Below are positions 5,575 to 55,072 of a stretch of DNA of 64,000 nt, in pieces; positions within the stretch are counted from its first letter, which is position 1, and each line of letters begins with the position of its first letter. The notes beneath the pieces are model-generated. The model saw only the letters and a list, made by a program, of their open reading frames with translations. It ran no database searches and was not told the DNA's origin. The translations under genes and the position numbers were made by a program. The stretch is taken from NCBI RefSeq assembly GCF_054482595.1, contig NZ_CM137008.1. One strand, given 5' to 3'.

Positions 5575-8500
5575 TTATTTCATCGCCTCCTCGCCCGTTG
5601 CCGTATTGGCATCCACCGCGGTAATGGTCACCGTCACTGGCTTCATTTCGTACCCGCCATAGGTCAGGGCGTTAAATGTGAATGTATAGACACCAGGCTT
5701 GCTGGTACTAAATGTACGCGTGATTTTTCCGCTCACGAAATGGTCATTTTTCGACGGCAGGAACTGATAATCCTCCTCCGTCACCCCTTCCGGCGTCTGA
5801 ATGTCGACCCACATATTCCCGCCAACGGGGTTATTTGCCGACATCAGGGTCACCTCCAGCTTCGCAGTCGATTTCCCATCCGCCACCAGAGATTGCATAT
5901 CAGATGATGCGGTGAGCACCGCGTTTTTATCATCCGCGACGAATTTAGATTCGGCAGTTTTCGTTGATACCTGACCGTTGGTCTGACTCACTTGCGCCGT
6001 GAGTTTATATGTCGCCGCAACAGTAGTGGTGGCGGTGAAAATAGCCTGCCCTTGCTCATTCGTTGTCGCAGTGCCATTCGGTTCCAGGTTTAACGAAGCC
6101 GGGCTGGCAGTTAGCGTCACGTCGCTATCTTTCACCAAATTGTTATTGGCATCAGTCACCGTAACTTTATACGTTTGTTTGGCTTTGCCGTCCGCCAGCG
6201 CATAGTTGCCCATCACCTCAATACCGGAGACGGTTGCGGTAGCCTTATCGGCTACAAACGTTATAGTCTGCGTATCCGAAGGCTGGCTATTCCCTGCCGA
6301 TGCCGTGATCTCATACGTTCCGGCAGTCACTGAAACCACCTGCAACTCGGCTTTCCCCTCATCGTTGGCTTTCACCCAGACATTATCGCCTGTAAGCGGC
6401 TTGACACCCCGGGGCAGATTAAAGGTCACCAGGCTCCCTGGAACAGGGTTACCATTTTTATCCTCAACGGTCGCCGTCAGCGTAAAGGCATCTTTGCCGT
6501 TTGCCACTTTTTGAACGGCGGTGTCTACCTGCAGGTTTGCCTGACCGGTGCTGGCATCCGCGTTGAATTTCACCGTGACCGTCTTCTGAGCACCATTCAC
6601 CGAAGCGGAAATATTGTGTTCTCCCGCAACCGTTGACATCAGCTCAATGTCCACTTTCCCTGCCGCATTGGTTGTTACTGTATTCCCCGTCTTGCTGGTC
6701 ACACCCTGCGGTAAAGTCAGCGTAACTTCTTGCCCCTGCAACGGGTTACCATAGCTGTCCACGACGGTCAGGGTTATCTGGTTCGCAGACTGTCCATTAG
6801 CCAGTTGGTTATTAAACTTCACTGTCATATCACGAATCTCAGCCTTAGATGCGTCACCTGCAACATTCAGCACCAGTGGCTGAGCAACGGCATTTTGGCC
6901 GTTCACTCGCGGCATCACAGACAACTGACCCGCGGCAGATCCCAGCGTTAAGGTCGACACGTAGACCCCATTACCTTTCTCTGTCCAGTTTCCTGCTGAA
7001 GGACGCTCACTCCCCGTGCTGGCGGCACCGCTAAACACTGGTGCATCTGGCTTCAGCCCGGTGACCGGGTTCCCGTACGCATCCTTCACGGTGAAGGTGA
7101 GTTCCGTCGTCGTTTTGACGGTCGGAGCCTTATTGTCCGCAACAAGCGTAGAGTTCGCTGATGACATCTCCCCGGCGATGACCGTCAACTGCGCGGCTTC
7201 GGTGGCTGCTGGCTGGCCGTTGAAGAGCGGCATGACGCGAAGCTCGCCCGTCTTTCCGCCTGTAGTCAACGTAGCAACATAGGAACCGTCACCTTTTTCG
7301 GTCCAACTGGAAACGGTCGCCCCTTCAGAGGCGGTCCCCGTCAAACTTGCCGACAACGCAAGACCACTGATAGCGTTGCCATGCGCATCTTTCGCCACCA
7401 GCGTCACGGTTGTGCTTTCGCCGGCTTTTACGTGGTCTTCTGCGACAGAGACTTTCGACTGGTTTGAAGATAACGCATCAGCCACCACGGTTACTTTTGC
7501 CGCATTTGCTGCCGCATTCTGTCCATTTAGCTTCGGCATAACTTCTAATTCACCCGCCGTAGAGCCGAGAGTAATCTGCGCAGTCCACGTCCCATCACCA
7601 TTATTTGTCCAGCCCGATGCCGTAGAACCTTCAGCAGCGGCACCCGCTAATGACGGCGCTTCCGGCGTGAGGCTGGTCACAGGGTTGTCATAGGCATCTT
7701 TTACCGTCCAGATTGCCGTAACTGTACCCCCAACCACCGGTTTATCAGGATTCAGGGTGATGGACGAATGTGCTGCATCAAGCGGCCCGGCAACAAACTT
7801 CAGCGTTTGTTGTAATGTGCCCAGCTGATACTGCTCGCTGAAAGCACGCACAACAACGTTTCCGGCACGGGTCGAAGAAACCGTGGCGCTGTAAACGCCT
7901 GGTTTTATTTCCGAAATGGCACCAACGGTTACACCATTAGTGTCTTGCGGAACAAATCGCAAGCGGCTGGCTTCTCCCGTCACCGGATTACCCTCGGAGT
8001 CCACCGCAGTCAACGTCAACGTATAGGCTTGCTGACCATCAGCAACCACGTCACCTGACGGCTCGTTAGCGCTCAGGGTGGAGTTTGCCACATCCATCAT
8101 CGTGGCCCGCAGTTCTGCAGTGACGGTTTTGCTCATGCCATCAACGCTAACAGTAATCGTTGCCTCACCTGACTGCGTTCCGGTAGTAAAGACAGACTGA
8201 TACACCCCTGCTTCAGTTTCGGTGAACTCACCCAGTGTTGGCTTTGCCTGTGATTTAGTGGCCTTCAGGGAACGAGTCACAATATTTCCAGCCGGTTTGA
8301 AAGTTAGTTCAGTCTTGATCTGATCTTTCATGCCCGTGACTGGCTGGCCCTCGGCGTCGCGCAGAGACAGCACCAGCGGTTTTTGCTCATTACCGTTAGC
8401 AAGCATTTGAATACGGCTCTGACCGTCAAGCGTTAACGCCGTGCGATCGGCGCTCATACCTGCTCCGGTAATGACCACCTCTGTCTGCACGCGTTTTGAG

Positions 8501-13246: not shown

Positions 13247-13603
13247 CTATTATTTTAGCCACATTATTAGTAACAATGATAATCTGGCTGTATCGAAAAT
13301 AATTCTAAACTTTCAGGAGATTTATTATGAATAAACGTATCCTCACGATTGTGCCATTCTTCTTACCGATATTCTGACACATATCATCAATTTTCGAGTT
13401 TTACTCTTTTCTCCACCATAAAATCAATAAAAGCACGAACTTTAGAGGGCATTCTCATCCGTGATGAAACATAAATATAAAATCCAGGAAATGAAACAGC
13501 CCAATCCTCAAGAATCGGCTGTAACTTGCCCGCATTGATATGTTCAGCGATTGCAAAATCCAGATGTTGAATGATACCCGTTCCATTCAGCGTGGATTTG
13601 CCC

Positions 13604-14509
13604 CTATATTTCCAGACACCTGTTATCACTTAACCCATTACTGGCTTGCTGCCGTAGATATTCCCGTGGCGAGCGATAACCCAGTGCACTATGCGGATGC
13701 CATTCGTTATAATGCTCGAATGCCTCTGCAAGGTTCTTTGCTGCCGTTAACCCGTCTGGTTTGGGCATGACACTGATGTAGTCACGCTTTATCGTTTTCA
13801 CGAAGCTCTCTGCTATGCCGTTACTCTCCGGACTCCGCACCGCCGTGTTCTTCGGTTCAAGCCCCAACATCCGGGCAAACTGCCGTGTTTCATTAGCCCG
13901 GTAGCATGAACCATTATCCGTCAGCCACTCTACTGGAGACGCCGGAAGCTCGTTGCCGAAACGGCGTTCCACCGCTCCCAGCATGACGTCCTGTACTGTT
14001 TCACTGTTGAAGCCGCCCGTAGTGACCGCCCAGTGCAGTGCCTCACGGTCACAGCAGTCCAGCGCGAACGTGACTCGCAGTTTTTCTCCGTTATCACAGC
14101 GGAACTCGAACCCGTCAGAGCACCATCGCTGATTACTTTCTTTCACAGCCACTCTGCCGGTATGTGCCCGTTTCGATGGCGGTACAGCGGGTTTTCGCTC
14201 AAGCAACAGCGCATTCTGGCGCATGATCCGGTAAATACGTTTGGCATTGATCGCAGGCATACCATCAAGTTCGGCCTGTCTGCGAAGCAGCGCCCATACC
14301 CGACGATAACCATATGTGGGCAGCTCTCCGATAACATGGTGTATACGGAGAAGCACATCCGTATCATCTGAGTGACGGCTGCGGCGACCATCTTTCCAGT
14401 CATCGGTTCGTCTGAGAATGACGTGCAACTGCGCACGCGACACCCGGAGACAACGGCTGACTAAGCTTACTCCCCATCCCCGGGCAATAAGGGCGCGTGC
14501 GCTATCCAC
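13604..14509 (-). CDS. insD: IS2 transposase OrfB (InsD, DDE integrase)
   Basis: 301-aa [23 protein letters not shown]... near-identical to IS2 InsD from memory. Confidence 0.9.
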
Positions 14510-14832
14510 TTTTTTGCACGCCCGTATTCAACGGCTTCTTTAAGGAGTTCATTTTCCATCGTTTTTTTGCCGAGCAGGCGCTGGAGTTCTTTAATCTGCT
14601 TCATGGCGGCAGCAAGTTCAGAGGCAGGAACGACCTGTTCTCCTGCGGCCACAGCAGTAAGACTTCCCTCCTGGTATTGCTTGCGCCAGAGAAATAACTG
14701 GCTGGCTGCCACACCGTGTTGCCGGGCAACAAGGGAGACTGTCATTCCCGGTTCAAAACTCTGCTGAACAATAGCGATCTTTTCCTGTGTAGTACGCCGT
14801 CTGCGTTTCTCCGGTCCTAAGACATCAATCAT
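14467..14832 (-). CDS. insC: IS2 transposase OrfA (InsC, HTH)
   Basis: ORF 14467..14877; start at [22 protein letters not shown] (14832); overlaps insD as expected for the frameshift-coupled pair. Confidence 0.9.
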
Positions 14833-15805
14833 CTGCTCTCCAATGACTAGTCTAAAAACTAGTATTAAGACTATCACTTAAATAAGTGATATTGGTTGTC
14901 TGGAGATTCAGGGGGCCAGTCTACAGCGCCATTCGTATCATGCTTTCGTCATCATTAGAAATATACTTACCTGAAACCTCTATTTCGAACTCTTCATTAC
15001 CCCCCACAACATTAGAAAACTCCCATGCAGAGAGTGCACCGCTACTTTTATGCCGCAACCGAAGGCAATTATGGTTACTCAGTTCCTGAGGCGTTTCAGG
15101 AATACCGTGTTCTTTTAAATAATCTGGCGATGCCACAGTAACCAGTTTAATAAGCGGAGAAACAGGAACGGCAGTCATATGCTCATCCAGTCCTTGCTCA
15201 AGACGTATGCCCACATCACAGCCGTCCGCAATAATGTTAGATAAACCGTCATCCATAATGAGTTCTATCTTTGTTTTGGGGTAACGAGTAAGAAACTCGC
15301 CAATATGAGGCTCAACAAGCATCCGTGCTGCAACACGGGAGGAATTTATTCTCAACAGGCCTGTAGGTTCAAGTTGGGTATCACCAACATCTTTCAAAGC
15401 ATCATCAATTTGCCCCAAAGCCGACACCAGCACTTCATACAGACGCTGTCCTTCCTCAGTAAGCGACATATTGCGGGTCGTACGGTATATCAGCTTGGTG
15501 TTAAGACGTTCCTCAAGAGATTTTAAATTCTGGGACAATGCGGCCCGCGTAATACCCATTTCAGAAGCGGCTCTGGAAAAACTGCCGGCACGAACAATCA
15601 GCGCAAACCAGGCAAGAGAAGGCAAAATTGAAGGCTCTATTTTCATCATTGTAAACCTTAACTTAACACTGTGATAGATATTAGACCATTGATGATAACC
15701 AATACAAGTCATACTATTACGCCGTTCTCGATATGAACACGAATGCCAGTTGCGGATAATAGAAATGATATTTAAATCTGTTTAGGCAAATCCCCGGAGC
15801 TTGAA

Positions 15806-18576: not shown

Positions 18577-18678
18577 ATGAAAGAGAATAAAGTACAACAA
18601 ATCAGTCATAAACTGATTAATATCGTTGTTTTTGTCGCAATTGTAGAATACGCCTATTTATTTCTCCATTTCTATTAA
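18577..18678 (+). CDS. ykgR: Small 33-aa membrane protein YkgR
   Basis: ATG 18577 to TAA 18676-18678; MKENKVQQISHKLINIVVFVAIVEYAYLFLHFY; not in ORF track (below size cutoff); degraded paralog at 37927. Confidence 0.6.
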   Translation: MKENKVQQISHKLINIVVFVAIVEYAYLFLHFY

Positions 18679-19007
18679 TAACGGCAATAAACTGTTCACT
18701 TCAGTGATATTTAAAATATGCATCCTCTCCCTTTTTGTAAGTAATTATTATATCCGTGGGAGAGGAATACACGCTGTCAGGTAATCAATCATACTGCGAT
18801 AAATCATCGGCCAGTAAAGTGGAGATAACCTCCATTCTCGAAAAATCCATACTCTCAGCGAAACTATCATCAATCACTCATCCAGGCGTTTATGGGAGCG
18901 TCGCCAATGGCTGTTAACAATGCCAGACTTCCCCGTTGCGGAAATTCCACATACCACTAATGGTCACAGGGATTGGGTGTTGAAATGATCCGGATGAGCA
19001 TGTATCT

Positions 19008-37926: not shown

Positions 37927-38200
37927 TATGAAAACCGATCAATATCGTTGTTTTTGTTGCAACAGTAGAATACGCGTATTTATCCCTCCATTTCTATTAA
38001 TAACGGCAATAAACTGTTCATTTCACTGATATTTAAAATATGCATCCTTTTCAAGCTGTTCAGCGGCATAAGAAAACGTATTAAATATGAATTCGACGAT
38101 TTAACCATTTCTGTCTGATTGGTAATCATCTGTGATTAATGCTGGTCTATTGATTACGCCAGCATTAACCGCTTAGGGATGTATTCTTCCTGTTGATATA
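37927..38200 (+). repeat. Degraded paralog of the ykgR-ykgM-ykgO locus
   Basis: 37940-38040 aligns to 18625-18725 (about 90% identity by eye); 38050-38085 resembles the last codons of ykgO; 38090-38200 resembles the terminator region 19450-19560; the ykgR-like frame is disrupted. Confidence 0.6.
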
Positions 38201-47620: not shown

Positions 47621-48356
47621 TTATCCTTCGATAAAAGCCATCCCTGTAAACGTTCGTCGCGGGTTGCCACGTTCAATCTGGTGATGGAACATTCGCCGCT
47701 GCGATTTCAGCACTGCGCTATTTTCCTGTTGCTGTTGCTCCAGCTTCCAGGCAATCAGCAATCGTGCCAGCCGCTTGTTGGCATGCTGGCTGCGCTCTGA
47801 CTGAACCTTCACGCTAATCCAGGTAGCCAGATGCGTGGCGCGCGCCGCCGAATCGGTTTTATTGACATGTTGACCGCCCGGCCCCGACGAACGCAGCGTC
47901 TCATAACGGACCGCGTCGGATTGTTCCTGCTCATCAGCAGTAAAACGCCCAATGCCCAGAAACCAGTTTTTACGCCCATGATGTGGGCGATACGGACTCC
48001 GACAAATCCACTGAATAGTGCCATACCAGCTTTCGCTTAATGCCCATGCGTTGTCGCCATTCAGAGAAACCAGCGCTGAACGCAGGGTGTCAGAGTAACG
48101 ACCTGTTTCTGTTTCCAGCACTGTTACCGCGACGTCTTGTCGGGTAAAAACGACCAACAGAGAAGAACGCTGCGCCAATCGGGTAGCCGCGTCCGGGGTG
48201 TAAATCTGGCATCCCCACTACGCGCTGCATGTTGGGTAAATTTGCCGTGGTGTGTAATTGTTGGATCGCTAAACTCTCGATCCACAGGTCATCAGATGCG
48301 ATGGTAAATACCGCATCGGATAAGGGACGAATATATTTGCCCATGTACCATTCCAT
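47621..48356 (-). pseudogene. prfH: Decayed rtcB-prfH module: RtcB-like N-terminal fragment in one frame fused to a release-factor-H body with a divergent N-terminus
   Basis: 47621..48178 encodes a class-I release-factor fold with GGQ ([15 protein letters not shown]) but an unusual N-terminus; 48090..48356 encodes a short RtcB-like N-terminal stretch ([17 protein letters not shown]) in another frame. Confidence 0.6.
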
Positions 48357-48646
48357 TTATACTCGTCATACTTCAAGTTGCATGTACTGCGACTACGTTC
48401 GTTCACCCCAGTCACTTACTTTAGTAAGCTCCTGGCGATTCACTCGCTTGTCACCTTCCTGCAACTCGAATTATTTAGAGTATATAAATATTAAAAATCA
48501 GGAAATGGCAGACGAATCCAGGGCAAGAAAAAAAGAATTAATCCTGGAAAGGTCTGCAAAGAGTCATTGATAAAGGATTTGTCATGATTTACCTCCTTGC
48601 AGTTTGTGGAATAAGAAAACGCGCACATACCAGGCGGGCGTTATTT

Positions 48647-49114
48647 TCATTGCAAGCTGGATTTAATGTTGCGGTTTATATCGCATAGAAAAATTAGTAA
48701 ACCACGCTCCCCGGCATTCAACGCGCTGCTGCTTAACTGTCTGAAAACCATAACGTTCAAAAAAGGGTTTGCGGTTATGCTTGCGTCCACCGTAAGTTCG
48801 GATTCAGACTTAATCAAAGGTTTTAACAAAGCGCTGGCAACCCCACGGCGGGTGTATTCAGGGTCAACAAATAACATATCGATATAATGTTCAATGCGGG
48901 AAATAAAACCAACCGGTTGTGCATTAATGACTGCAACCCGCACTTGTGATTTCGCGAGTTTCTCCTTCCAGCGAGATTCGTCAATCTGCGCCCAGGCGGC
49001 AATTTGTTGTGGTGAATAATGCTGACTTGCGGTCATCATAACCGCTCTAATGAAAATAGCGCATAGTTGCTGAAAATCGCCAGGCTGATAGTTTCTTATT
49101 TGTATGTTATTCAT
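48647..49114 (-). CDS. yafP: GNAT-family acetyltransferase YafP
   Basis: 155-aa ORF; start overlaps the dinB stop. Confidence 0.8.
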
Positions 49115-50166
49115 AATCCCAGCACCAGTTGTCTTTCCATTTGCGGGTCAAGCAACGTCACATGCAGCCCCACCAGACGCACACCTCGCCCGCCGCGGCG
49201 TTCATCCCAGGTTTTACGCGCGGTGGCGATTAAGTCAGCTTTATTCAGCCTCGGCCAGACGTGCTCCTGGGTGGTTTGCTGAAAATCGTCGAACTTTAAT
49301 TTCACCCCCTGGCGAGCAATCAGTAAATCAGGTTTTACCTTTGCCAGACGGCGTTCAAGTTCCGGATACAGCCGCTCGATAATCGCCTCACATTCAGACC
49401 AGTGATGAATATCTTCCGCCATCGTGCGTTCCACGCCGACGGATTTTCGCAACCGTTCGCTGTTAACATCGCGTTCGTCAATCCCCTGACTACGCTCCCA
49501 CAAAATGCGGCCAAATTTGCCAAAGCGTTTAAGCAGTATCACCAGATCACACTTTTGTACATCACCGCAGGTCCGCAGCCCCATCGCTTCCAGTTTTGCC
49601 GCCGAGACTTTGCCGACGCCGGGGATTTTTGCCAGTGATAAGGTTTGTAAAAATGCCGGAACTTCTGCCGGCGTAATCACAAACTGGCCGTTGGGTTTAT
49701 TCATGTCGGAGGCGATTTTGGCGAGAAACTTTACTGGTGCCACGCCCGCAGATGCCGTCAGTTGCAGCTCGTTGAAAATCGTCTGGCGGATTTCCTGGGC
49801 GATGAGGGTCGCAGAACCGTGGCAATGGACGCTGTCGGTGACATCGAGATAGGCTTCATCCAGTGACAACGGTTCAATGCGCGAGGTGTAGCGCGAGAAG
49901 ATTTCACGGATATGATTTGAGGCTTCTTTGTAGGCGTCAAAGCGCCCCGGAAGCAAGGTGAGATGTGGGCATAATTTGAGCGCCATCCCTGTCGGCATAG
50001 CGCTACGTACGCCAAATTTACGCGCGGGATAATTGGCGGTGCTGATCACCCCTCGACGTTCGCGGCTGCCGCCAATAGCAATAGGGATATCGCGCAGGGC
50101 GGGATTGTCGCGCATCTCCACCGCTGCGAAAAAGCAGTCCATATCCACATGAATGATTTTACGCAT
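49111..50166 (-). CDS. dinB: DNA polymerase IV
   Basis: 351-aa [36 protein letters not shown]... Confidence 0.95.
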
Positions 50167-50182
50167 TGCTCACCTCTCAACA

Positions 50183-50198
50183 CTGGTAAAGTATACAG
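50183..50198. promoter_or_regulatory. LexA (SOS) box upstream of dinB
   Basis: CTGGTAAAGTATACAG (CTG-N10-CAG palindrome) 17-32 bp upstream of the dinB start. Confidence 0.75.
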
Positions 50199-50236
50199 TG
50201 ATTTCAGGGTTTGAGAAATGCGTAAAGATTCAGCAT

Positions 50237-51000
50237 TTAACGCGTTCGCTGCGAAAGCACCTGCTGCTTATCCAGCTTTTGCACCAGTGGCTGCACCACT
50301 TTATCCCCATGCTGACCAAAGTATTGATACAGCGTATCGGACGCACTTTTGGTCAGCACCATAATCTCAATACGCCGATTGCCCGCGCTTTGCGGATTTT
50401 TGGCATCCAGCAGCATCTGGTCCGCCATTGCGCTTACCTGCATCACTTTATCTTCCGGCATTCCGGCCTCTTCCAGCACCCGACGAGCTGAAAGCGCGCG
50501 ATCGCCCGAAAGGTTCCAGTTGTTGTAGATATTGTTTTTGTAGGCCATCGCATCGGTATGCCCGGTAATAATAATTTTGTTATCGAGCGAGTCGAACACT
50601 GGCGCTAGCTCCACCAGCAGCGTTTTAAAGAACGGCATAATCTTCGCGCTGCCGCGTTCGAACATATTGCGATTCTGGTCGTCTTTAATCAGCACGCGTA
50701 ATCCCTGGGGAACAATCTCCATCTCCAGATTCGCTTCCATATGCGCATCACGGGCAATGGTGTTGATACTGGTTGCCAACTCGCCAAGCTCGGTGGCGGA
50801 TTTCTTCTTCAGCAGCGCCGTTTTCTCATTCACATCACGCGCTTTTTTCTCCGTCTCTTCCGGCACCGCCACGGTGGCAGGTTTTGGCGGATGAGACGGG
50901 CTGATTTTATTTAACGGCGACAGCCCACCACCGTTAAAAATCGACTGCCCGTGCAGCGCGGCGATAATGCTTTCACGCTCGGATTTACTGACGCTGTTGA
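50237..51000 (-). pseudogene. lafU: MotB-like Flag-2 motor protein remnant, 5'-truncated
   Basis: C-terminal OmpA-like peptidoglycan-binding domain (ITGHTDAMAY...NRRIEIMVL); the apparent N-terminal 40-50 aa of ORF 50237..51127 is antisense lfhA sequence. Confidence 0.7.
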
Positions 51001-52706
51001 CAATCAACTTTATCGTCGTCACCAAAGGGGCCGAGCGTATTTCCGAGGTTTCTGCCCGCTTTACCCTGGACGCGATGCCCGGCAAACAGATGGCGATTGA
51101 CGCCGACCTTAACGCCGGGTTGATCAACCAGGCGCAGGCGCAAACCCGGCGTAAAGATGTCGCCAGCGAGGCCGATTTCTACGGCGCGATGGACGGGGCA
51201 TCAAAGTTTGTGCGCGGGGACGCCATCGCCGGGATGATGATTCTGGCGATCAACCTGATCGGCGGTGTCTGTATCGGGATCTTCAAATACAACCTGAGCG
51301 CCGATGCTGCCTTCCAGCAATATGTGCTGATGACCATCGGCGACGGGCTGGTGGCGCAGATCCCTTCCCTGCTGCTCTCCACCGCGGCGGCGATTATCGT
51401 CACCCGCGTCAGCGACAACGGCGATATCGCCCATGACGTGCGCCACCAGCTGCTGGCAAGCCCGTCGGTGCTCTACACCGCCACCGGGATTATGTTTGTG
51501 CTGGCGGTGGTGCCGGGAATGCCGCATCTGCCGTTTTTGCTGTTCAGCGCCCTGCTTGGCTTTACCGGCTGGCGGATGAGCAAACGCCCGCAGGCAGCGG
51601 AGGCGGAGGAGAAAAGTCTCGAAACGCTGACCCGCACCATCACCGAAACCAGCGAGCAACAGGTCAGTTGGGAAACGATACCGCTGATCGAGCCTATCAG
51701 TTTAAGCCTCGGCTACAAACTGGTGGCGCTGGTGGACAAAGCCCAGGGCAACCCACTCACCCAGCGGATCCGCGGCGTGCGACAGGTGATATCCGACGGC
51801 AACGGCGTGCTGCTGCCGGAGATCCGCATTCGGGAAAATTTCCGCCTCAAGCCCAGCCAGTACGCCATTTTCATCAACGGTATTAAGGCTGATGAAGCGG
51901 ATATTCCGGCGGATAAACTGATGGCCCTGCCCTCCAGCGAAACCTACGGCGAGATTGACGGCGTGCTGGGGAACGACCCGGCGTACGGGATGCCGGTGAC
52001 CTGGATCCAGCCCGCGCAGAAAGCGAAGGCGCTGAATATGGGGTATCAGGTGATCGACAGCGCCAGCGTGATTGCCACCCATGTGAATAAGATTGTGCGC
52101 AGCTATATTCCTGATTTGTTTAACTATGATGATATTACGCAGTTGCATAATCGTTTGTCGTCGATGGCACCGCGCCTGGCAGAAGACTTAAGCGCGGCGC
52201 TGAATTACAGCCAGTTGCTGAAAGTGTACCGCACACTACTGACCGAAGGCGTTTCCCTGCGCGATATCGTCACCATCGCCACCGTGCTGGTCGCCAGTAG
52301 CGCGGTGACTAAAGATCATATTCTGCTGGCGGCCGATGTACGCCTGGCGCTGCGGCGCAGCATTACCCATCCGTTCGTTCGCAAGCAGGAGCTGACGGTG
52401 TATACGCTGAATAATGAGCTGGAAAATCTGCTCACCAATGTGGTGAATCAGGCGCAACAGGGCGGCAAAGTGATGCTCGACAGCGTGCCGGTTGACCCGA
52501 ATATGCTCAACCAGTTCCAGAGCACGATGCCGCAGGTAAAAGAGCAGATGAAAGCGGCGGGGAAAGACCCGGTGCTGCTGGTGCCGCCGCAGCTTCGCCC
52601 TTTGCTGGCGCGCTATGCGAGATTGTTTGCGCCGGGGCTGCATGTGCTGTCGTATAACGAAGTGCCGGATGAGCTGGAGTTGAAGATTATGGGGGCGTTG
52701 ATGTAG
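50967..52706 (+). pseudogene. lfhA: Flag-2 FlhA-family export-apparatus gene remnant lacking the first ~120 codons
   Basis: ORF begins inside the FlhA transmembrane region (VVTKGAERISEVSARFTLDAMPGKQMAIDADLNAGLI); no upstream coding sequence. Confidence 0.75.
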
Positions 52707-52900
52707 GTATCCGGCATCGGTGCACAACCGCCGGATGCGGCGTGAACGCCTTATCCGGCCTACCGATCCGGCACAGGTTTGTAGGCATGATAAGACGCGC
52801 CAGCGTCGCATCAGGCATCCGCGCACAATTGCCGGATGCGGCACAAGTTTGTAGGCATGATAAGACGCGCTAGCGTCGCATCAGGCATCCGCGCACAATT
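52707..52900. repeat. REP/BIME cluster (several REP palindromes)
   Basis: Repeated gccggatgcggcgtgaacgccttatccggcctac and gtaggcatgataagacgcgccagcgtcgcatcaggc units. Confidence 0.85.
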
Positions 52901-54530: not shown

Positions 54531-54791
54531 ATGGCTGCAAATGCATTTGTTCGCGCCCGAATCGATGAAGATCTGAAGAATCAGGCGGCGGACGTACTGG
54601 CCGGGATGGGGCTGACCATCTCTGACCTGGTTCGCATAACCCTCACAAAGGTCGCGCGTGAAAAGGCATTGCCGTTTGATTTACGCGAGCCTAATCAATT
54701 AACCATTCAATCAATCAAAAACAGCGAAGCTGGCGTTGGTGTTCATAAGGCCAAAGACGCCGATGATTTATTTGATAAATTAGGAATTTAA
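54531..54791 (+). CDS. dinJ: Antitoxin DinJ
   Basis: 86-aa MAANAFVRARIDEDLKNQAADVLAGMGLTISDLVRITL... Confidence 0.9.
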   Translation: MAANAFVRARIDEDLKNQAADVLAGMGLTISDLVRITLTKVAREKALPFDLREPNQLTIQSIKNSEAGVGVHKAKDADDLFDKLGI

Positions 54792-54793
54792 AT

Positions 54794-55072
54794 ATGATTC
54801 AAAGGGATATTGAATACTCGGGACAATTTTCAAAGGATGTAAAACTTGCACAAAAGCGTCATAAGGATATGAATAAATTGAAATATCTTATGACGCTTCT
54901 TATCAATAATACTTTACCGCTTCCAGCTGTTTATAAAGACCACCCGCTGCAAGGTTCATGGAAAGGTTATCGCGATGCTCATGTCGAACCGGACTGGCTC
55001 CTGATTTACAAACTTACCGATAAACTTTTACGATTTGAGAGAACTGGAACTCACGCGGCGCTCTTTGGGTAA
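54794..55072 (+). CDS. yafQ: mRNA interferase toxin YafQ (RelE fold)
   Basis: 92-aa MIQRDIEYSGQFSKDVKLAQKRHKDMNKL...; 2 bp after dinJ. Confidence 0.9.
   Translation: MIQRDIEYSGQFSKDVKLAQKRHKDMNKLKYLMTLLINNTLPLPAVYKDHPLQGSWKGYRDAHVEPDWLLIYKLTDKLLRFERTGTHAALFG

Follow-up and report, generated by a model that had tools for sequence, protein, structure and literature searches.

The window analyzed here, a stretch of 64,000 nt, is a segment of the Escherichia coli chromosome whose gene order is inverted relative to that of strain K-12. In window order, the genes of interest are pepD, an rtcB'/prfH' remnant, yafP, dinB, a lafU'/lfhA' remnant, rayT, yafL, and the pair dinJ-yafQ. The present report concerns the adjacent genes dinB and yafP, whose features are as follows.

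49111-50166, minus strand: dinB, coding for DNA polymerase IV; intact ORF of 351 aa
50181-50200, minus strand: LexA box of dinB, CACTGTATACTTTACCAGTG, with the core CTG-N10-CAG at 50183-50198; identical to K-12
50190-50217, minus strand: promoter-like site of dinB from a consensus scan, with -35 TTCTCA, a 16-nt spacer, and -10 TATACT
49111-49114, minus strand: ATGA overlap, formed by the dinB stop codon TGA (49113-49111) and the yafP start codon ATG (49114-49112)
48647-49114, minus strand: yafP ORF as read, 155 aa, of which residues 1-115 are YafP and residues 116-155 are out of frame
48768-48770, minus strand: frameshift site in yafP, a plus-strand T3 run that reads A3 in the gene (GCAAACCC); relatives have T4 there (GCAAAACCC)
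48663-48767, minus strand: native-frame remainder of yafP, codons 116-150 plus the stop codon at 48663-48665, now not translated in frame

The dinB gene itself is unremarkable. Its product shares 99.4% identity with K-12 DinB and exceeds the curated cut-offs of the Pfam models IMS, IMS_HHH, IMS_HHH_1, and IMS_C (PF00817, at 173 bits, PF11798, PF21999, and PF11799). These matches to the full-length protein predict a Y-family DNA polymerase IV with its IMS catalytic region, its HhH/thumb region, and its little finger (IMS_C). Over the 81 bp upstream of dinB, the sequence is exactly that of K-12, including the LexA box that the first-pass annotation had correctly described as intact. The -10 hexamer of the promoter-like site falls within this box. 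Because promoter-like sites in the region are no more numerous than expected from shuffled sequence in the consensus scan, the assignment of the dinB promoter rests on identity with K-12, and the LexA control of the operon is predicted on the same grounds.

In K-12, annotation confirms the gene order dinB-yafN-yafO-yafP (b0231-b0234), in which a toxin-antitoxin pair separates the two genes. No such pair is present in the window. The genes dinB and yafP are adjacent on the same strand, and sequence and alignment agree with the earlier observation that the start codon of yafP overlaps the stop codon of dinB. Alignment to K-12 and to the intact relative XH990 gives the cassette-free junction as GGATTATGAATAAC, with zero residual cassette bases. 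The same junction is found in all eight of the two-gene E. coli genomes that were sampled, and also in Escherichia sp. MOD1-EC7003. The nearest genome, that of E. coli GF66.1, likewise has dinB followed directly by yafP in its PGAP annotation; over 62.7 kb of alignment it differs from the window by six SNPs, one 1-base indel, and an IS-sized insertion of 1331 bp.

The proposal that no ORFs resembling yafN or yafO exist at this site withstood homology searches. Tblastn of YafN and YafO (word size 2, E up to 10) against the whole 64-kb window yielded chance-level matches only, as did blastn and blastn-short searches of the same 64 kb with the 755-bp K-12 cassette. Within the interval 48650-49120, two weak matches were considered as candidates for residual yafNO sequence and rejected, because both are antisense (E values of 0.56 and 7.5). 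A YafN-YafO type II system would consist of a gene for a YafO_toxin protein (PF13957) after a gene for a Phd/YefM-type antitoxin, and the 64 kb contain no protein or DNA homolog of either component.

With these characteristics, the locus conforms to an operon form that has been known for more than a decade. Gutierrez et al. (2011, Nucleic Acids Res 39:4192; PMC3105422) surveyed 98 genomes and 72 ECOR strains, and found that 40-50% of strains carry dinB and yafP only, “always fused together” by a 4-nt ATGA overlap. Strain CFT073 was chosen for that study precisely because of its two-gene operon. A 2023 survey reported that YafO is less prevalent in phylogroups B1, C, and G and in ST131/ST73 (PMC10790755). 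In our own counts, DNA of the K-12 yafNO segment was matched in 2847 of the 5426 complete E. coli genomes, and 60 records sampled at even spacing included 27 two-gene and 32 four-gene operons across all identity levels. The layout is no peculiarity of the strain but a published polymorphism in which ∼47% of complete E. coli genomes are two-gene. How common the two-gene operon is, how it is distributed phylogenetically, and that its genes overlap at ATGA have all been known since 2011 and from later surveys. The missing cassette belongs to an old polymorphism, shared across Escherichia, in which yafNO is either present or absent, and is not an event private to this strain.

We therefore regard the window operon, with a probability of about 0.9, as an ordinary allele of the two-gene type for which strain CFT073 provided the first description. 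It shares with the CFT073 operon the gene order, the ATGA overlap, the absence of yafN and yafO, and a dinB promoter predicted to be SOS-regulated. It differs in that yafP is frameshifted at codon 116, so that the YafP half of the Pol IV/YafP pair is probably missing. Relative to the four-gene operon of K-12, the dinB promoter and LexA box are alike over 81 bp, DinB is nearly identical as noted above, and the yafP region of XH990 has 98.5% nucleotide identity. In contrast, the window is without a 759-bp segment that comprises the yafN promoter/operator region, yafN, and yafO, and the strain makes neither the YafO mRNA interferase nor the YafN antitoxin.

Although the first-pass annotation took yafP to be intact, a -1 frameshift removes the C-terminal third of its GNAT domain. 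An intact yafP is 453 bp long and codes for 150 aa, and in the window it would stop at 48663. GF66.1 and 12 other genomes (including XH990) that are otherwise identical over 48300-50400 have four Ts at the frameshift site, and the window is one T short. The frame is lost at codon 116, inside a conserved segment of 12 residues, and 40 foreign residues follow. Accordingly, tblastn splits the match to K-12 YafP over two frames (49114-48740 and 48770-48663), with about residues 116-151 of the K-12 protein matched at 97% identity in the other frame.

The consequences for the protein are best judged from its domain alignments. The Acetyltransf_1 alignment of the frameshifted YafP ends at model position 86 of 116, whereas the intact protein reaches 116 of 116, and the Acetyltransf_7 alignment ends at position 53 of 84; these alignment ends correspond to residues 100-102. 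Similarly, Acetyltransf_10 scores 50 bits for the frameshifted protein vs 71.7 for the intact one. The first 115 residues thus remain above the Pfam threshold, at 50 bits, and keep the acetyl-CoA-binding motif region. However, the GNAT fold is predicted to be incomplete, lacking its C-terminal motif B helix and last strands. With the final third of its acetyltransferase fold replaced from codon 116 on, the YafP of the window is probably inactive, which would leave dinB as the sole working product of the operon.

A missing base in a short run of identical nucleotides, like an absent cassette, invites the question of whether an assembly or sequencing error is involved. In favor of such an error are the location of the frameshift in a homopolymer and the fact that none of the 5426 RefSeq complete E. 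coli genomes carries the frameshift allele. However, the run at this site is only 3-4 bases long, and the lost base is the only indel relative to GF66.1 in 62.7 kb of alignment and the only one relative to XH990 in 2.1 kb. Moreover, the frameshift recurs with identical flanks in assemblies of separate projects (GCA_965257005.1, ERR6746624, ERR1790717, ERR15602633, and SRR23198742). Four loci from different projects match the window at 99.95%-100% identity, deletion included. The frameshift product, called from an internal start, appears in 38 blocks of a public collection, and at least 24 contigs carry the allele. As for the two-gene junction, thousands of independent complete genomes share it. 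An artefactual origin of either feature is consequently very improbable, and for the frameshift a sequencing error is ruled out by the single indel in 62.7 kb together with the recurrence in independent assemblies. The yafP frameshift allele is real and, given its absence from the 5426 complete genomes, confined to a small lineage.

The affected tract lies at 48759-48771 and reads AAACCCTTTTTT on the gene strand, compared with AAAACCCTTTTTT in relatives. An adjacent run within this tract is subject to the same kind of change. Alleles in which six Ts have become five (P0012, P0217, and P0219 among them) acquire the same out-of-frame tail, and they fall within a cluster of 77 sequences seen on well over 100 contigs, complete chromosomes included. 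Since independent alleles arrive at the same tail, the tract AAAACCCTTTTTT is a recurrent frameshift site in yafP. A literature search for yafP pseudogenes found none.

These features suggest a simple scheme for the operon, which borrows its regulatory part from the identity with K-12. LexA would repress a single promoter, DNA damage would derepress it, and one transcript would carry both dinB and yafP. The overlap of the dinB TGA with the yafP ATG points to translational coupling, in which yafP would most likely be translated by termination-reinitiation of ribosomes that have just finished dinB. In comparison, Gutierrez et al. (2011) speak of frameshifting, not translational coupling, at the ATGA overlap. 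With no yafN-yafO between the two genes, no YafO would be produced upon SOS induction. With yafP shifted at codon 116, DNA polymerase IV would be the only working product of this SOS operon.

YafO is a ribosome-dependent mRNA interferase. Since yafNO is absent, SOS induction in this strain should proceed without YafO-dependent mRNA cleavage at the ribosome, and the suggestion that the layout bears on SOS-induced translation inhibition was a fair one. The consequences for the strain are nevertheless modest, amounting to an SOS response without YafO-mediated translation inhibition and probably without YafP activity as well. YafP has been reported to modulate the toxicity and mutagenicity of nitroaromatics, NQO and nitrofurazone among them, which Pol IV must then handle (PMC3105422). 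For this strain, the yafP frameshift matters more than the missing toxin-antitoxin pair. A neighboring mRNA-interferase system, the type II toxin-antitoxin pair dinJ-yafQ (54531-55072, 4.4 kb from dinB), is intact and has been retained although the strain is without yafNO.

How the lineage of the window came to be without the cassette is a separate matter. Gutierrez et al. (2011) proposed that yafNO was deleted by recombination between two ATGA sequences. We find that the exact repeat is longer, namely the 7-bp sequence ATTATGA. Copies of this direct repeat, 759 bp apart, bound the cassette in all 11 of the four-gene loci that were examined, that of Escherichia whittamii included, and in K-12 (L001) they lie at 5948-5954 and 6707-6713. 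In E. coli, a third copy is present 39 bp into the dinB-yafN spacer. Recombination between the copies flanking the cassette would yield the two-gene junction exactly, and an insertion that duplicates its target would just as exactly yield the four-gene form. The junction is thus neutral with regard to direction. The alternatives originally offered, an ancestral state or a clean loss, were the right ones, and the junction is indeed exact, but the sequence of the junction fits both equally.

We consider it somewhat more probable that the lineage descends from a four-gene ancestor and lost the 759-bp yafNO segment, which is the published view. Such a loss could have occurred by slippage or illegitimate recombination between ATTATGA copies, or through homologous replacement by the two-gene allele of another strain. 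The repeats at both cassette ends provide the means, as their recombination gives the observed junction, and the distribution of alleles indicates that changes of this kind have happened more than once. In a tree of dinB plus yafP from 22 loci, the two- and four-gene forms are interleaved, and clades with 100% bootstrap support hold both. Strains AVS0362 (two-gene) and SCU-122 (four-gene) agree throughout the informative sites between -325 and -34 of dinB; from +36 of yafP onward they agree at nearly all such sites, with two differences. This common and distinctive haplotype implies that a cassette switch happened on a single haplotype. Together with the interleaved tree, it argues that switching has been repeated and has not proceeded solely via long foreign tracts. 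A single origin of the two-gene allele marked by linked SNPs was rejected, as no flanking SNP farther out associates with cassette presence. Nearer to the junction, over the first 34 nt upstream and the first 21 nt downstream, no SNP varies.

Small deletions also do occur at the dinB operon, as is evident from a third form, dinB-yafN-yafP, found in Escherichia sp. E1V33 (L006 3470-3510) and in E. coli GF43 (H45). In E1V33, a separate deletion between TTAT microhomologies has cut yafO alone to 10 codons (MRVFKTKLIL), leaving an orphan antitoxin, and the TGA of the remnant again overlaps the ATG of yafP. Two further observations favor loss. Pseudocitrobacter carries an old and fully diverged four-gene operon at the same site, and parsimony on the ECOR tree, with Escherichia fergusonii being four-gene, led to the inference of at least three independent losses (PMC3105422). 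Other findings weigh on the opposite side. The scarless junction is indistinguishable from that of a lineage that never had the cassette, and the window haplotype is nested among four-gene alleles with a bootstrap support of just 47%. Furthermore, the cassette is far less diverged than its flanks, which is unexpected if it was inherited vertically from an ancestor of the genus and lost only a few times.

This last discrepancy is substantial. Between E. whittamii (L009 2746-3500) and K-12 (L001 5955-6709), the cassette is 98.0% identical, whereas dinB, yafP, prfH, and pepD are 93%-94% identical. The corresponding synonymous divergence is 0.29 for dinB, 0.088 for yafN, and 0.037 for yafO (Fisher P of about 9 × 10−7), and the trough of divergence is centered on yafO. 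Within Escherichia, the cassette shows 3-8 times less synonymous divergence than dinB. In the comparison with Pseudocitrobacter, synonymous sites are saturated in all three genes alike, which argues that yafO is under no intrinsic synonymous constraint. These values suggest that the cassette has been exchanged between Escherichia species and lineages independently of its flanks.

Such exchange is a central element of the other account, which we judge possible but doubtful for the window lineage, and in which the two-gene layout is primordial and the lineage has always been free of the cassette. The yafNO pair would then be a mobile module that entered the dinB-yafP junction and spread by recombination. 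In keeping with this account, dinB is followed directly by yafP in Escherichia marmotae (with the ATGA overlap), Citrobacter amalonaticus, Klebsiella aerogenes, and Kluyvera ascorbata, and also in an Escherichia-like contig with a junction that is homologous at every base. Across the family as a whole, a two-gene operon appears to be the older arrangement. Homologs of YafNO with 67%-69% identity reside in unrelated contexts in Klebsiella variicola and in a Pectobacteriaceae genome. A duplicated 7-mer that spans the dinB stop codon and the yafP start codon is the expected trace of an insertion with target duplication, and the lack of synonymous constraint on yafO points the same way. The GC content of the cassette (41.9%) is also well below that of dinB (54.2%); however, yafP is similarly AT-rich (43.3% GC), making composition weak evidence. 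To our knowledge, no insertion mechanism generates a 7-bp duplication for a bare toxin-antitoxin pair, which counts against this account. In Pseudocitrobacter, the cassette is 77%-79% identical to that of K-12 at the nucleotide level, close to the 80% of dinB, and has no flanking repeat. The cassette has evidently been at the dinB-yafP site for a long time, as judged from this divergence. Finally, no separate deep clade unites the two-gene alleles, and most of them therefore cannot all be uninterrupted descendants of an allele that predates the insertion.

On balance, loss appears slightly ahead of retention for the window lineage, since switches have recurred on single haplotypes and the published phylogeny favors loss. 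At the same time, the published polarity, in which four genes are ancestral in Escherichia and the cassette was lost at least three times, may oversimplify the history. We tentatively propose, while granting that the odds fall somewhat short of even, that the two-gene layout is older and that yafNO is mobile and spreads by recombination into the dinB-yafP junction between lineages and species. The same tentative proposal includes the notion that the dinB and yafP alleles on either side are several-fold older than the yafNO alleles carried by E. coli and E. whittamii and, as a separate minor point, that the tract AAAACCCTTTTTT repeatedly knocks out YafP in nature. A cassette younger than its flanks and a two-gene layout that is widespread outside Escherichia would qualify the inference made in 2011, as far as a small sample allows. 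A scan of genome contigs with YafP recovered only four Escherichia loci plus an unrelated GNAT protein from the planctomycete Thalassoglobus neptunius, and its peptide patterns did not recover E. fergusonii or Escherichia albertii, species to which two short Logan contigs may belong. For the evolution of toxin-antitoxin systems, our findings suggest that a cassette can move independently of its flanks, such that losing it and never having had it look the same at the locus.

The surroundings of the operon offer several additional observations. Downstream from yafP, positions 47621-48356 hold an rtcB'/prfH' fusion remnant that corresponds to K-12 ykfJ and prfH; an intact rtcB-prfH pair is located downstream from yafP in E. 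marmotae, in K. aerogenes, and in many sampled E. coli genomes. On the other side of dinB, positions 50237-52706 represent the lafU'/lfhA' scar left by deletion in the Flag-2 lateral flagella cluster, in a form like that of K-12. Strain XH990 differs from the window over 48300-50400 solely by the yafP frameshift base, yet its lafU-motA-fliA cluster is intact. The polymorphisms of Flag-2 and of the dinB operon are thus uncoupled.

The insertion that separates the window from GF66.1 lies at 13593-14923, and its flanks overlap by 5 bp. It codes for two overlapping transposase-type ORFs of 136 and 301 aa, which resemble IS2. It splits a gene for a LysR-family regulator that is intact in GF66.1. 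Adjoining rayT at 52765-52900 are short tandem units of ∼66-70 bp, which are probably REP elements. Lastly, a 117-bp repeat with 91% identity between its copies, at 18610-18726 and 37932-38048, represents a second, partial copy of ykgR.
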